DNA of 64,000 bases, from NCBI RefSeq assembly GCF_000026545.1, contig NC_011601.1, one strand, 5' to 3'. The notes under the pieces were generated by a model. It saw nothing but the letters and a program-made list of their open reading frames with translations, had not been told where the DNA came from and made no database searches. This document shows, piece after piece, positions 2,876 to 51,469 of this stretch. The translations under genes were made by a program, and so were the position numbers. The stretch comes from Escherichia coli O127:H6 str. E2348/69 (lineage in GTDB: Bacteria; Pseudomonadota; Gammaproteobacteria; Enterobacterales; Enterobacteriaceae). How positions within the stretch are numbered: position 1 is the stretch's first letter; each line of letters opens with the position of its first letter.

Positions 2876-3421
2876 ATGAGTGCCAATGAAAACAACCTGA
2901 TTTGGATCGATCTTGAGATGACCGGTCTGGATCCCGAGCGCGATCGCATTATTGAGATTGCCACGCTGGTGACCGATGCCAACCTGAATATTCTGGCAGA
3001 AGGGCCGACCATTGCAGTACATCAGTCCGATGAACAGCTGGCGCTGATGGATGACTGGAACGTGCGCACCCATACCGCCAGCGGGCTGGTAGAGCGTGTG
3101 AAAGCGAGCACGATGGGCGATCGTGAAGCTGAACTGGCAACGCTCGAATTCTTAAAACAGTGGGTGCCTGCGGGAAAATCGCCGATTTGTGGTAACAGCA
3201 TCGGTCAGGACCGTCGCTTCCTGTTTAAATACATGCCGGAGCTGGAAGCCTACTTCCACTACCGCTATCTCGATGTTAGCACCCTGAAAGAGCTGGCGCG
3301 CCGCTGGAAACCGGAAATTCTTGACGGCTTTACCAAGCAGGGGACGCATCAGGCGATGGATGATATCCGTGAATCGGTGGCGGAGTTGGCTTACTACCGC
3401 GAGCATTTTATCAAGCTGTAA
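2876..3421 (+). CDS. orn: Oligoribonuclease
   Basis: ORF 2732..3421; recalled Orn starts [19 protein letters not shown] at the ATG at 2876; DEDDh exonuclease motifs. Confidence 0.92.
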
Positions 3422-3519
3422 AATTTTTCCTGGTCACGTAAGCGCCGGAATCCACTTGCGGCGGCGTGATTTTGACGCCAAATTGAACGTCTTGCTGATA
3501 ATTTCAGCACTTGAGATAA

Positions 3520-3580
3520 AAACTCAAAAAAAATTTTTTAGGGGGGTTGCAGAGGGAAAGATTTCTCGTATAATGCGCCT
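3520..3580 (+). promoter_or_regulatory. Candidate sigma70 promoter of the glyVXY tRNA operon with upstream A/T tract and GC-rich discriminator
   Basis: TTGCAG (3547-3552), 16-bp spacer, TATAAT (3569-3574), then GCGCCTCCC discriminator typical of stringently controlled stable-RNA promoters; A/T-rich tract 3521-3541. Confidence 0.6.
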
Positions 3581-3631
3581 CCCGTAACGACGCAGAAATG
3601 CGAAAATTACGAAAGCAAAATTAAGTAGTAC

Positions 3632-3707
<76 letters not shown>

Positions 3708-3864
3708 AAATTTGAAAAGTGCTGCAAAGCACAGACCACCCAATCGCAGTATTTCGAATTGCGACAAGGCGGCAACTGAACGAATCCTTGGGAGCTTACA
3801 AAAGTAAGTGACTAAGGTGAGTGAAGGCAGCCAAGGCAGTAGCGGTTCGAAAGACGAAGATTAA

Positions 3865-3940
<76 letters not shown>

Positions 3941-3975
3941 AAATTTGAAAGTGCTGTAAAGCACAGACCACCCAA

Positions 3976-4051
<76 letters not shown>

Positions 4052-4059
4052 AATTCTTC

Positions 4060-4320
4060 TCTCAATAAAATATCCACAGCGACGCGATGCGTTATTGCTG
4101 GTTTTTGTTGTCTCTGACAAACTCTTGTAAACAGAGTTATCCACAGCCTCAGGCCGTAATCTTAATTTCAAAGAAACTTCGCACGGTGAATAGTATTTTT
4201 TTAACCTATTGATAGATAAGTTAAAAATTAAGATTTCGTTTTGTCGTATCGATCACTTGACGATTTTTTCCGGCTTGAATTGCAATGCGTTTTTATTTTT
4301 ATTCACAAGCTGTGGATGAA
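4060..4320. promoter_or_regulatory. datA: datA-like DnaA-box cluster (DnaA titration locus) between glyVXY and queG
   Basis: DnaA-box matches to TTATNCACA: ATATCCACA 4070-4078 (8/9), TTATCCACA 4137-4145 (9/9), TTATTCACA 4299-4307 (9/9) and inverted TGTGGATGA 4311-4319 (8/9), with an A/T-rich stretch between; position matches recalled location of datA. Confidence 0.6.
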
Positions 4321-5458
4321 TCAGGCGTCACGCGGTAACCCTTTTTCAATTACCCGAACCAGACGCTGTTTTTTCGGCAATTGCACTTCGACTATGCACG
4401 CATTTCGTCTCTCGATTTGCTGCGCAATCGCCCACGCTATGTGCTCATCAAGAAGTGGGTGCTCACCTTTACGACTTTCCAGCGCTGTCAAAATCGTTTC
4501 ATCCCAGGGGGCATTGCCTAATGCTACGGCGATATTACGCAGCCAACGCAGGTGACCTATACGGCGAATCGCCGAACCTTCCGTGACTTTTAAAAACTTC
4601 TCTTCACTCCAGGCGAATAACTCAATGAGTTCCGGTGCGTGTAGCGGCTTACGCGGGCTGAAATCGTCTTCTGTAGTGAGTTGCGAATAGCGATTCCACG
4701 GGCAGATAAGCTGGCAGTCATCGCAACCGTAAATACGGTTTCCCATTAACGGTCGCAACTCTTCTGGGATCGCCCCTTCCAGTTCGATGGTGAGATAAGA
4801 GATACAGCGGCGAGCATCGACGGTATATGGCTCGACGATGGCACCGGTCGGGCAAATCGTCATACAGGCCACGCATTTACCGCATCCTTCCTCGACTGGT
4901 TGATCCACGGGCAGCGGAATATCGACCAGCAATTCGCCTAAAAAGAAGAACGAACCGGCCTCGCGATTGAGGATAAGTGAGTGCTTACCTGTCCAGCCAA
5001 GACCTGCTTTTTCAGCTAACGGGCGCTCGAGAATAGGCGCAGAATCGACAAACGGTCTAAAATTCAGCGAAACACAATGTTGCTGAATCATCTCGCCCAG
5101 CTTTTTGAGTCGGTTGCGCAGAAGCTTGTGATAGTCACGGCCCAGCGCATAACGGCTAACATAGCCGAGTTTAGGATTTTTCAGTGTGCTGGCAAATGCG
5201 GCGTTAGCAGGAAGGTAATTCATCCGCACGCTGATCACGCGCAGCGTACCGGGCAATAATTCGTGAGGACGAGCACGCAGCATACCGTGACGCGCCATCC
5301 AGTCCATTTCGCCGTGGTATTGTTTGTCCAGCCATGCTTGCAGTTTGGGCTCGGACGCGCTGAGATCGGTATCGGTAATACCTACCTGCTGAAAGCCCAG
5401 TTCCAGCCCCCACTGTTTAATATTTTGCGCTAATTGATTGAGATCGAGGGGCTCTGAC

Positions 5459-5460
<2 letters not shown>
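4321..5460 (-). CDS. queG: Epoxyqueuosine reductase
   Basis: ORF 4321..5568; recalled QueG N-terminus MSEPLDLNQLAQNIKQWGLELGF gives start at 5460; 4Fe-4S ferredoxin Cys motifs (CGKCVACMTICP, CDDCQLICP). Confidence 0.9.
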
Positions 5461-8795: not shown

Positions 8796-10643
8796 ATGCC
8801 AATTCAGGTCTTACCGCCACAACTGGCGAACCAGATTGCCGCAGGTGAGGTGGTCGAGCGACCTGCGTCGGTAGTCAAAGAACTGGTGGAAAACAGCCTC
8901 GATGCAGGTGCGACGCGTATCGATATTGATATCGAACGCGGTGGGGCGAAACTTATCCGCATTCGTGATAACGGCTGCGGTATCAAAAAAGATGAGCTGG
9001 CGCTGGCGCTGGCTCGTCATGCCACCAGTAAAATCGCCTCTCTGGACGATCTCGAAGCCATTATCAGCCTGGGCTTTCGCGGTGAGGCGCTGGCGAGTAT
9101 CAGTTCGGTTTCCCGCCTGACGCTCACTTCACGTACCGCAGAACAGCAGGAAGCCTGGCAGGCCTATGCCGAAGGGCGCGATATGGACGTGACGGTAAAA
9201 CCGGCGGCGCATCCTGTGGGGACGACGCTGGAGGTGCTGGATCTGTTCTACAACACCCCGGCGCGGCGCAAATTCCTGCGCACCGAGAAAACCGAATTTA
9301 ACCACATTGATGAGATCATTCGCCGCATTGCGCTGGCGCGTTTCGACGTCACGATCAACCTGTCGCATAACGGTAAAATTGTGCGTCAGTACCGCGCAGT
9401 GCCGGAAGGCGGGCAAAAAGAACGGCGCTTAGGCGCGATTTGCGGCACCGCTTTTCTCGAACAAGCGCTGGCGATTGAATGGCAACACGGCGATCTCACG
9501 TTGCGCGGCTGGGTGGCCGATCCGAATCACACCACGCCCGCACTGGCGGAAATTCAGTATTGCTACGTGAATGGTCGCATGATGCGCGATCGCCTGATCA
9601 ATCATGCGATCCGCCAGGCCTGCGAAGACAAACTGGGGGCCGATCAACAACCGGCGTTTGTGTTGTATCTGGAGATCGACCCGCATCAGGTGGACGTCAA
9701 CGTACACCCCGCCAAACACGAAGTGCGTTTCCATCAGTCGCGTCTGGTGCATGATTTTATCTATCAGGGCGTACTGAGCGTGCTACAACAGCAACTGGAA
9801 ACGCCGCTACCGCTGGACGATGAACCCCAACCTGCACCGCGTGCTATTCCGGAAAACCGCGTGGCGGCGGGGCGCAATCATTTTGCTGAACCGGCAGTTC
9901 GTGAGCCAGTAGCTCCGCTTTACACTCCTGCGCCCGCCTCAGGCAGTCGTCCGGCTGCCCCCTGGCCGAATGCGCAGCCAGGTTACCAGAAACAGCAAGG
10001 TGAAGTGTATCGCCAGCTTTTGCAAACGCCCGCGCCGATGCAAAAACCAAAAGCGCCAGAACCGCAGGAACCTGCACTTGCGGCGAACAGTCAGAGTTTT
10101 GGTCGGGTACTGACTATCGTCCATTCCGACTGTGCGTTGCTTGAGCTCGACGGCAACATTTCACTTTTAGCCTTGCCAGTGGCAGAACGTTGGCTGCGTC
10201 AGGCACAATTGACGCCGGGTGAAGCGCCCGTTTGCGCCCAGCCGCTGCTGATTCCGCTGCGGCTAAAAGTTTCTGGCGAAGAAAAATCTGCATTAGAAAA
10301 AGCGCAGTCTGCCCTGGCGGAATTGGGTATTGATTTCCAGTCCGATGCGCAGCATGTGACCATCAGGGCCGTGCCTTTACCCTTACGCCAACAAAATTTA
10401 CAAATCTTGATTCCTGAACTGATAGGCTACCTGGCGAAGCAGTCCGTATTCGAACCTGGCAATATTGCGCAGTGGATTGCACGAAATCTGATGAGCGAAC
10501 ATGCGCAGTGGTCAATGGCGCAGGCCATAACCCTGCTGGCGGACGTGGAACGGTTATGTCCGCAACTTGTGAAAACGCCGCCGGGTGGTCTGTTACAATC
10601 TGTTGATTTACATCCGGCGATAAAAGCCCTGAAAGATGAGTGA
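8796..10643 (+). CDS. mutL: DNA mismatch repair protein MutL
   Basis: GHKL ATPase N-terminus [38 protein letters not shown]; ~615 aa. Confidence 0.95.
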
Positions 10644-49919: not shown

Positions 49920-51469
49920 CTGTCTCTTATACACAAATCCCCACCCGGGGATTTGTGATGTCTGTCAGTCTGCTTTAGGGGGACTCTTTCCATCCGGTAG
50001 TTTCCTTCCTCCCCGGCAGCGATTTTTTGAACTTTTTCCTCACCTGTTGATCTTCTCTTATATTTCATTTTCTTCGGGTCTGTTATGGTACTTTCTGATT
50101 GTTATTCATGGGCTAACGAGCAGTTTGGACATGCCCGTCTCGGTGATCCGCGTCGTACACGACGCCTTGTGTCACTGGCCTCTTCTCTCGCTCAGCATGC
50201 AGGTCTTTCTATTGTGAAATCATCCCAGTCCACTGCTCAGGTTGAAGGTGCGTACCGCCTGATACGTAACCCGTCTGTGTCCCCGCAAGCCATTGCCGAA
50301 GCCGGATTTACCGCCACTGTAAGGGCATGTGAGGCTCATCCGCTGCTCCTCGCGCTGGAAGACACCACCACCATTAACTTCAGTCACAGTACGGCATCTG
50401 ATGACCTGGGGAATACCACCACTAACCCGAAGACGCGCGGGCTGCTGGCTCACTCTGTCCTGATGTACGCCCCCGACAGCGCCCTGCCAGTCGGTCTTAT
50501 CGAACAGCAGCGCTGGAGTCGTGCCACGGACACCTACGGTGTTAAGCACCAGCGAAAAGAACGTCCCTATGAAGAAAAAGAAAGTTACCGCTGGCAGCAG
50601 GCTTCGGAGCGCATGGCCGAACGGCTGGGGGAGATACAGAAACGGGTAATCACTGTCTGTGACCGGGAAGCGGATATCTGGCATTACCTGCATTATAAAG
50701 TCAGCCACGGGCAGCGCTTCGTGGTGCGTGCAGCACAGAATCGCCGGCTGGAAGAAGCACCCGGCAAGCTCTTCGAACTGCCGGAAGTCCTGGCAACCGC
50801 GGGAAGCCACACGCTGAATGTGATGCAAAAAGGCGGGCGGGCAGCCCGCCAGGCCCGGATGTTCATCAGTTACAGCGAAGTCAGCATAAAAAATCCCGAC
50901 AACAGCGGCCAGGCGCTCCCGCTCACGTATGTCTGTTGCCGGGAGCAGGCAGAGGACGGCGCCTGCTGGCATCTGCTGACGTCAGAAAAAGTGGCGAGTG
51001 CCGCCGATGCGCGACGTATCGTCAGCCATTACGAGCGACGCTGGCTGATAGAGGAATACCACAAGGCGTGGAAAAGTGGTGGTACATGTGTGGAATCGCT
51101 GTGAATGCAGACCCGGGATAACCTCGAGCGCATGGTGGTTATCAAGGCGTTTATCGCGGTGCGGGTGCTGGGCCTGCGGCAGGGCGGTATCAGTGAAGAA
51201 ACACAAAATGACAGCTGTGAGAAAATACTGACGCCGACAGAGTGGAAACTGCTGTGGGTTAAGCTGGAAGGAAAACCGCTTCCGTCACAGATGCCGACAC
51301 TGAAATGGGCCTGTCTGAAACTGGCGAAACTGGGGCGATGGCATGACAGCAAACGCACCGGTCGCCCCGGTTGGGTAGTCATGTGGGATGGCTGGTTCAG
51401 ACTTCAGGATATGGTTGAGGGTTACCTGGTGATGAAGTCTCTTGATCAGGAGATCTGATCAAGAGACAG
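49920..51469 (+). mobile_element. IS50-like insertion sequence (IS4 family), ~1.55 kb, with terminal inverted repeats and ~9-bp flanking direct repeats
   Basis: Left end CTGTCTCTTATACACAAAT (49920-) and right end AGATCTGATCAAGAGACAG (-51469) match IS50 OE/IE-type ends; flanks CGAACCAG at 49912-49919 and 51470-51477; internal transposase homologous to Tn5 Tnp. Confidence 0.85.
50085..51458 (+). pseudogene. IS50-like DDE transposase interrupted by in-frame TGA (339-aa + 117-aa fragments)
   Basis: ORFs 50085..51104 and 51105..51458 share one frame, separated by TGA at 51102-51104; Tn5-Tnp-like motifs GDPRRT, ALEDTT, CDREADI, RWLIEEYHKAWK in the first part and DNLERMV / DSKRTG in the second. Confidence 0.8.

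Follow-up and report, generated by a model that had tools for sequence, protein, structure and literature searches.

A DnaA-box cluster between glyVXY and queG in Escherichia coli O127:H6 E2348/69 is very probably datA, with box and IHF-site spacing retained across Enterobacterales

We analyzed a stretch of 64,000 nucleotides (hereafter the window; contig NC_011601.1) from the enteropathogenic E. coli (EPEC) strain E2348/69. The locus considered here lies within the gene order rsgA, orn, glyVXY, a small ORF, queG, and nnr; in MG1655, the same interval is annotated as orn, glyV, glyX, glyY, yjeV, and queG. The queG gene is convergent with glyVXY and forms the downstream boundary of the element described below. 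In K-12, datA maps to 94.7 min, between glyVXY and queG/yjeS. As shown in Table 1, the interval between the last tRNA gene and queG holds a series of DnaA boxes and a single site for integration host factor (IHF).

Table 1. Genes and sequence elements at the glyVXY-queG locus of E2348/69 (window coordinates)
Feature	Position	Strand	Basis and remarks
glyV, tRNA-Gly(GCC)	3632-3707	+	ARAGORN, Rfam tRNA, RefSeq
glyX, tRNA-Gly(GCC)	3865-3940	+	ARAGORN, Rfam tRNA, RefSeq
glyY, tRNA-Gly(GCC)	3976-4051	+	ARAGORN, Rfam tRNA, RefSeq
glyVXY operon	3632-4051	+	Read-through transcription enters datA (role of PglyVXY: PMC10950094)
TglyVXY terminator/attenuator hairpin	4063-4110	+	RNA fold; U-run 4102-4106; overlaps DnaA box 1
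DnaA box 1, ATATCCACA	4070-4078	+	One mismatch; dispensable for DDAH (PMC10950094)
DnaA box 7, TTGTAAACA	4125-4133	+	Two mismatches, low affinity; putative position; box 7 is DDAH-essential
DnaA box 2, TTATCCACA	4137-4145	+	Perfect match; high affinity, essential; also read-through roadblock
IHF-binding site (IBS), single, TATCAATAGGTTA	4202-4214	-	Consensus match and published datA IBS
DnaA box 3, TTATTCACA	4299-4307	+	Perfect match; high affinity, essential
DnaA box 4, TCATCCACA	4311-4319	-	One mismatch; 3 bp beyond box 3 and in the opposite orientation
yjeV, annotated 17-aa ORF	4285-4338	+	RefSeq; overlaps boxes 3 and 4 and queG 3' end
queG, epoxyqueuosine reductase	4321-5460	-	RefSeq, translation, Pfam QueG_DUF1730 and Fer4_16

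We scanned the 64-kb window with the DnaA-box consensus TTATNCACA. Only three perfect matches were found, two of which lie in this interval at 4137-4145 (+) and 4299-4307 (+); the third, TTATACACA at 49927-49935, is isolated. When one mismatch was allowed, four boxes fell within 4070-4319, a span of exactly 250 bp, so that the original prediction, which had claimed four box matches, two of them perfect, in 250 bp, was right at the coordinates that it gave. Its claim of a head-to-head pair abutting the queG 3' end also held: the convergent pair TTATTCACA-agc-TGTGGATGA occupies 4299-4319, and the queG stop codon (4321-3) follows one base beyond box 4. Further, the A/T-rich stretch that had been thought able to hold an IHF site does hold one. 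The interval 4052-4320 has a GC content of 35% compared with 51% across the whole window, and a perfect match to the IHF consensus WATCAANNNNTTR lies at 4202-4214 (-), one of just two in the 64-kb window (the other is at 10596-10608).

Two kinds of composition-preserving shuffle were used to gauge chance: 2000 shuffles of the window and 20000 shuffles of the AT-rich interval alone. Boxes with at most one mismatch were not enriched window-wide (42 observed versus 47 expected). At least four boxes per 250 bp arose in 71/2000 window shuffles and at least two perfect boxes per 250 bp in 22/2000; both together, i.e. at least four boxes including at least two perfect ones in 250 bp, arose in 1/2000. 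Shuffling of the AT-rich interval itself gave at least four boxes in 5/20000 cases. The local clustering of DnaA boxes is unusual, although the number of boxes in the window as a whole is at the level expected by chance.

In published work, datA directly follows glyV-X-Y and occupies the intergenic region that precedes queG (PMC10950094). In an alignment of 4040-4420 with MG1655, the two strains were gap-free across the locus at about 97-98% identity. Boxes 1, 7, 2, 3, and 4 and the IBS were unchanged, and all seven substitutions within 4070-4320 (at 4155, 4236, 4247-8, 4268, 4270, and 4273) fall in spacers only. Because there are no indels relative to MG1655, the gaps between box 2 and the IBS and between the IBS and box 3 (56 and 85 nt) are likewise those of the K-12 locus. 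Three published sequences fix the elements to individual bases. The IHF site of MG1655 datA is given as TATCAATAGGTTA (PMC4585315, suppl. Fig. S11), which has an exact match, as the reverse complement, at window 4202-4214. The subDnaAbox2_L/R primers (PMC10950094) flank exactly 4137-4145 and change TTATCCACA to AACATGTGT, and the ChdatAsubIBS primer (PMC10950094) matches 4181-4250 and alters TTGATA at 4209-4214. Because these sequences anchor the map, the four boxes noticed at the outset can be equated with datA boxes 1, 2, 3, and 4; box 3 was assigned from the published arrangement, in which box 2 is followed by the IBS, box 3, and box 4 and in which boxes 2, 3, and 7 are co-oriented (PMC5742627). 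In K-12, the minimal datA comprises boxes 2, 3, and 7 and the IBS, all of which are essential, and box 4 is stimulatory (PMC5742627, PMC10950094): it stimulates the reaction in vitro and can be dispensed with in vivo (PMC5742627, PMC10950094). Our literature search brought up no published DnaA ChIP study of the whole E. coli genome that covers datA. The suggestion that datA lies here, near glyV-X-Y, is thus upheld by the published map position, the gap-free MG1655 alignment, and the IBS and primer matches. We conclude, with a probability of about 0.95, that window 4070-4319 is the datA of E2348/69, a non-coding element that would lower the level of ATP-DnaA after replication has started, and that would, to judge by its bases, behave like the K-12 copy. 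datA is already known, and recognizing the locus here is biologically nothing new.

Although the four boxes of the original prediction were the right ones, it missed the essential low-affinity box 7 beside box 2. A scan that tolerated up to two mismatches picked out TTGTAAACA at 4125-4133 (+), which is co-oriented with box 2 and separated from it by 3 bp on the upstream side. From secondary sources and the sequence we infer that this is box 7, because the span 4125-4307 is exactly 183 bp, the published length of minimal datA (PMC5742627); because the essential boxes all have one orientation (PMC5742627); because "The DnaA Tale" puts box 7 beside box 2 (PMC5835720); and because PyjeV, which is reported as overlapping box 7, has its -10 element near 4128-4133, as follows from the overlap of its -35 element with the glyVXY terminator (~4095-4110; PMC10950094). 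A location just upstream of box 3 was also considered, the idea being that PyjeV overlaps box 7 and yjeV starts at 4285. It was rejected on three grounds: no box with at most two mismatches exists there except one that overlaps box 3, the PyjeV -35 element lies at the terminator (PMC10950094), and "The DnaA Tale" has box 7 adjoining box 2. Among the matches listed in the cross-species scan described below, the consensus TTnTAAACAGAG at 4125-4136 (box 7 plus spacer) is strongly conserved in Enterobacterales without being required by the search pattern.

Four systems are known to set the ATP/ADP state of DnaA, thereby limiting the cell to one replication round per cell cycle, and datA is one of them. 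Its main action is to promote IHF-dependent hydrolysis of DnaA-bound ATP (datA-dependent hydrolysis, DDAH), and titration of DnaA is real but smaller (PMC5835720, PMC5742627). Both IHF-dependent DnaA-ATP hydrolysis and post-initiation IHF binding have been demonstrated for the identical K-12 elements (PMC5742627, PMC10950094). The steps of DDAH were established in K-12 (PMC5742627) and are carried over to E2348/69 here by inference. ATP-DnaA would occupy box 2 (4137) and box 3 (4299), both of high affinity, and would bind cooperatively to box 7 (4125), whose affinity is low; these three boxes share one direction, and box 4 (4311) would assist. After initiation, IHF would bind at 4202-4214, roughly midway between boxes 2 and 3, and bend the DNA sharply, so that two DnaA sub-complexes would be joined into a head-to-tail oligomer via the AAA+ arginine finger. 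The bound ATP would be hydrolyzed in this oligomer in a manner that depends on sensor 2 Arg334, after which ADP-DnaA would dissociate and the cycle would repeat; because ADP-DnaA leaves, the reaction would be catalytic. Simple titration of DnaA by the boxes would be a smaller additional effect.

The original prediction had spoken of the datA "titration locus." The identification as datA stands, and the mechanism implied by the name needs refinement: the deletion phenotype is now ascribed mainly to DDAH, and titration contributes less (PMC5835720, PMC5742627). The term is historically correct but mechanistically outdated, because point mutants devoid of DDAH have the deletion phenotype while mutant plasmids still titrate somewhat. 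With respect to magnitude, deletion of datA from the wild type raises ATP-DnaA by just a few percent, and the contribution of DDAH is in that sense quantitatively small (PMC5835720); according to another report, the behavior of a strain that lacks all four extrinsic regulators of DnaA can be close to normal (PMC11331064). With respect to IHF occupancy, datA was not substantially detected by genome-wide IHF footprinting (GeF-seq) (PMC8407004), and targeted ChAP-qPCR does detect IHF at datA (PMC10950094).

The timing of IHF binding would be linked to transcription from upstream. Read-through from PglyVXY would cross the IBS before and at initiation and would be a prerequisite for keeping IHF off datA, yet read-through is reported to be insufficient alone, with an additional factor needed for timely IHF dissociation (PMC10950094). 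Read-through would be damped by the leaky terminator at 4063-4110 and by DnaA on box 2, and IHF, once bound, would itself block it. In RNA folding, 4063-4110 gave an imperfect hairpin with UUUUU after it (ΔG -14.3 kcal/mol, z = -2.0), and box 1 lies in the ascending arm; consistent with this, TglyVXY is described as overlapping box 1 and the PyjeV -35 element (delter primers and text, PMC10950094). A promoter/terminator scan of 3400-4500 gave no matches, and it also missed the published glyVXY promoter and imperfect terminator; because it missed these, the scan is uninformative, and it was the folding that recovered the hairpin. In an Rfam search of 3400-4400, the three tRNAs alone scored above threshold. 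A sub-threshold match to YrlA (Y RNA-like) at 3890-4028 (40 bits versus a gathering threshold of 69) extends from glyX through the spacer into glyY; it is almost certainly due to the tRNA-like module that YrlA RNAs contain and not to a genuine YrlA, and a Plastid-ycf2 match in the same search was dismissed as noise.

To place the element in a wider context, we examined its distribution within and beyond the species. A 271-bp core was present in single copy, at 90-100% identity, in 5425/5426 complete E. coli genomes (at least 99% identity in 1070, 95-99% in 4302, and 90-95% in 53), which agrees with a published survey of 59 genomes (PMC4585315). One further genome gave no core match. In E. coli P276M (NZ_CP044293.1, positions 2700-2760 of the extracted locus L123), the right end of datA has diverged and the 3' end of queG differs: TTATTTTGG stands in place of the box 3 sequence TTATTCACA, and box 4 reads TCATCCAAA. 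P276M carries either a natural datA variant without box 3 or an assembly artifact.

For the cross-species scan, one genome per species was searched with the pattern TTATCCACA-N46-66-TAANNNNTTGAT-N75-95-TTATNCACA, and at least 120 loci matched. At least 70 of these had a convergent QueG homologue whose 3' end lies within 60 bp after box 3. Among the matches listed, the layout of box 2, IBS, and box 3 beside queG occurs in five families (Enterobacteriaceae, Erwiniaceae, Yersiniaceae, Hafniaceae, and Morganellaceae), and the syntenic genera comprise Escherichia, Enterobacter, Cedecea, Buttiauxella, Dryocola, Pantoea, Mixta, Serratia, Rahnella, Rouxiella, Chimaeribacter, Edwardsiella, Morganella, Providencia, Photorhabdus, and Xenorhabdus. 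A same-strand tRNA-Gly(GCC) gene lies within 600 bp in 32 of the 50 listed syntenic loci that have enough upstream flank. In the syntenic loci listed, the two gaps measure 55-58 and 83-87 nt even though the pattern permitted 46-66 and 75-95, whereas in the non-syntenic matches listed the gaps are spread over the whole permitted range. The near-fixed gaps agree with the published dependence of datA function on spacing.

Other features of the locus are retained to different degrees. Among the matches listed, most syntenic Enterobacterales loci have a box-1-like site (no more than one mismatch) 56-59 bp ahead of box 2, an inverted box comparable to box 4 is found in 21/70 syntenic loci of other Enterobacterales, and the yjeV ATG is found at the equivalent position in 2/70. 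The ORF is therefore not what is conserved, and yjeV is probably not part of the datA mechanism. Because the loci were chosen by the pattern, it is partly circular to call box 2, the IBS core, and box 3 conserved; synteny, spacing, and the other conserved positions are free of this circularity. Positions outside the pattern were scored in 43 representatives at no more than 85% identity from among the matches listed.

In this set, several bases directly upstream of box 3, outside any annotated datA element, are conserved in Enterobacterales among the matches listed: TTG at 4257-59, TTGA at 4275-78, CAA at 4283-85, and TTTTTATTT at 4290-98. The poorly conserved yjeV ORF does not account for them. 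These bases could provide extra low-affinity contacts for ATP-DnaA, favor a bend, or form the site of another factor, and one candidate ligand could be the additional factor called for in timely IHF dissociation (PMC10950094). A separate observation concerns the tRNA operon. Relative to MG1655, E2348/69 carries a 121-bp insertion at 3742-3862 in the glyV-glyX spacer (157 versus 36 bp), which folds as a long imperfect hairpin (-43.8 kcal/mol, z = -5.0). E. coli genomes contain members of this dispersed family at a median of 7 places, for the most part at 60-80% identity, and we assign the insertion to the ERIC/IRU type because its core GAATCCTTGGGAGCTTACAAAAGTAAGTGACTAAGGTGAGTG is similar to the sites of the ERIC1R and ERIC2 primers, the sequences of which were confirmed. 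Coverage of 3400-4400 reaches 80% or more in only 1636/5425 genomes, and the insertion is therefore polymorphic; it occurs in E2348/69 and in about 30% of E. coli genomes. It lies inside the glyVXY transcript whose read-through regulates datA. That the conserved bases at 4257-4298 are a binding site and that the ERIC-like insertion changes read-through into datA are two readings that we regard, taken together, as speculative and rather unlikely to hold.

We compared the locus with related systems. K-12 datA has the same position, flanking genes, and spacing and is identical base for base in boxes 1, 7, 2, 3, and 4 and the IBS; it differs by the seven spacer SNPs and by the absence of the 121-bp ERIC-like insertion. 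The DnaA-oligomerization region of oriC (R1, IBS, R5M, and following boxes) likewise has co-oriented boxes with one IHF site between them, and IHF bending there likewise favors a head-to-tail ATP-DnaA oligomer (PMC5742627). However, the box-to-box distance across the IBS is far longer at datA (boxes 2 and 3 are 153 bp apart), datA leads to ATP hydrolysis and, per the literature, not to unwinding (PMC5742627), and HU cannot replace IHF at datA (PMC5742627). DARS2 is similarly a non-coding DnaA-box cluster gated by cell-cycle-timed IHF binding (PMC5742627), but it has the opposite function, in that release of ADP regenerates ATP-DnaA; moreover, its core boxes I-III are arranged otherwise, it also needs Fis, and it is located at 64 min. 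The clusters of Bacillus subtilis and Streptomyces coelicolor are comparable in that DnaA boxes outside the origin repress untimely initiation (PMC10950094, PMC5742627). These clusters have no known sequence homology to datA and no known IHF site, and titration is usually invoked for them, with no ATP hydrolysis on record.

The cross-species scan also returned matches in other bacteria. At least nine loci in Sutterella, Parasutterella, or Burkholderiaceae carry the pattern (perfect DnaA box, IHF core, DnaA box) with an identical span of 176 bp; in the two of these whose flanks were examined (L019, 11580-11755, and L037, 8112-8287), the pattern lies downstream of hemE (URO-D). A Pelistega locus (L007, 2883-3064) has a span of 182 bp, also downstream of hemE, and a priA-type ORF follows the pattern in L019 and L007. 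This Burkholderiales arrangement is a conserved DnaA/IHF element, which could be an origin or a datA/DARS-like site. Among the matches listed, three Bifidobacterium loci (L116, at 2652-2830, L112, and L113) share a span of 179 bp; in L116, the sole Bifidobacterium flank examined, the pattern lies just upstream of dnaN (Pfam DNA_pol3_beta), and this match is presumably the dnaA-dnaN oriC region. Several pattern matches of 173-174 bp in Chryseobacterium, among the matches listed, lie amid uncharacterized genes.

In the original model of datA, which dates from 1996-2002, the locus serves only to titrate: free DnaA is taken up by the boxes, and duplication of the locus soon after initiation lowers the free pool, with no catalysis involved. 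datA was first obtained as the fragment that binds DnaA most strongly and owes its name to titration, the cluster does contain four boxes with at most one mismatch, and plasmids with a point mutation in box 2 or the IBS still titrate, but less (PMC5835720). However, when DDAH is abolished by a point mutation in the IBS, box 2, or box 7, the phenotype is that of the full deletion (PMC5835720), and the published data are opposite to a binding-competent, hydrolysis-deficient datA acting like wild type. Further, titration alone does not readily explain why IHF, exact spacing, and exact orientation are required (PMC5742627), and the spacing is constant to about 2 nt across Enterobacterales among the matches listed. 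We consider titration without catalysis very unlikely.

Even less probable, to the point of being nearly negligible, is that the boxes serve transcription primarily and replication control secondarily. DnaA at boxes 1, 7, and 2 would then be a roadblock or attenuator of glyVXY read-through or a repressor of PyjeV, and boxes 3 and 4 would act on yjeV or the queG 3' end. Mutation of box 2, or deletion of the terminator with box 1, does result in more read-through RNA across datA (PMC10950094), box 1 is inside the terminator hairpin, and PyjeV is reported as overlapping box 7 (PMC10950094). Nevertheless, the same study treats the read-through effects as regulation of datA itself and not as a separate function, and it found that deletion of the queG promoter was without effect on initiation (PMC10950094); the yjeV start is kept in only 2/70 loci among the matches listed while boxes, IBS, and spacing are conserved, and data on plasmid-borne datA and on DDAH in vitro also speak against this role. 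As for a functionless cluster, arisen by chance, of 9-mers that resemble DnaA boxes in AT-rich intergenic DNA, the window-wide count at chance level and the finding of four boxes in 250 bp somewhere in 3.6% of shuffled windows would be compatible with it, but the joint occurrence in 1/2000 shuffles, the local shuffles (5/20000), and the conservation of the boxes where spacers vary are not, and it is already refuted by the identity of the elements with those of the experimentally dissected K-12 locus. The preferred reading is that the cluster is datA and would act mainly through DDAH.

Overall, the sequence alone sufficed for recognizing a small non-coding regulatory element, and the modest value added by this analysis is a map that places all datA elements of an EPEC strain to the base, together with evidence that the layout of box 2, IHF site, and box 3 and its spacing persist beside queG in five Enterobacterales families. 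The two minor leads, i.e. the conserved bases at 4257-4298 and the ERIC-like insertion, bear on how IHF binding to datA is timed; if it is true that the insertion alters read-through, it would mean a strain-specific change in the timing of DDAH.
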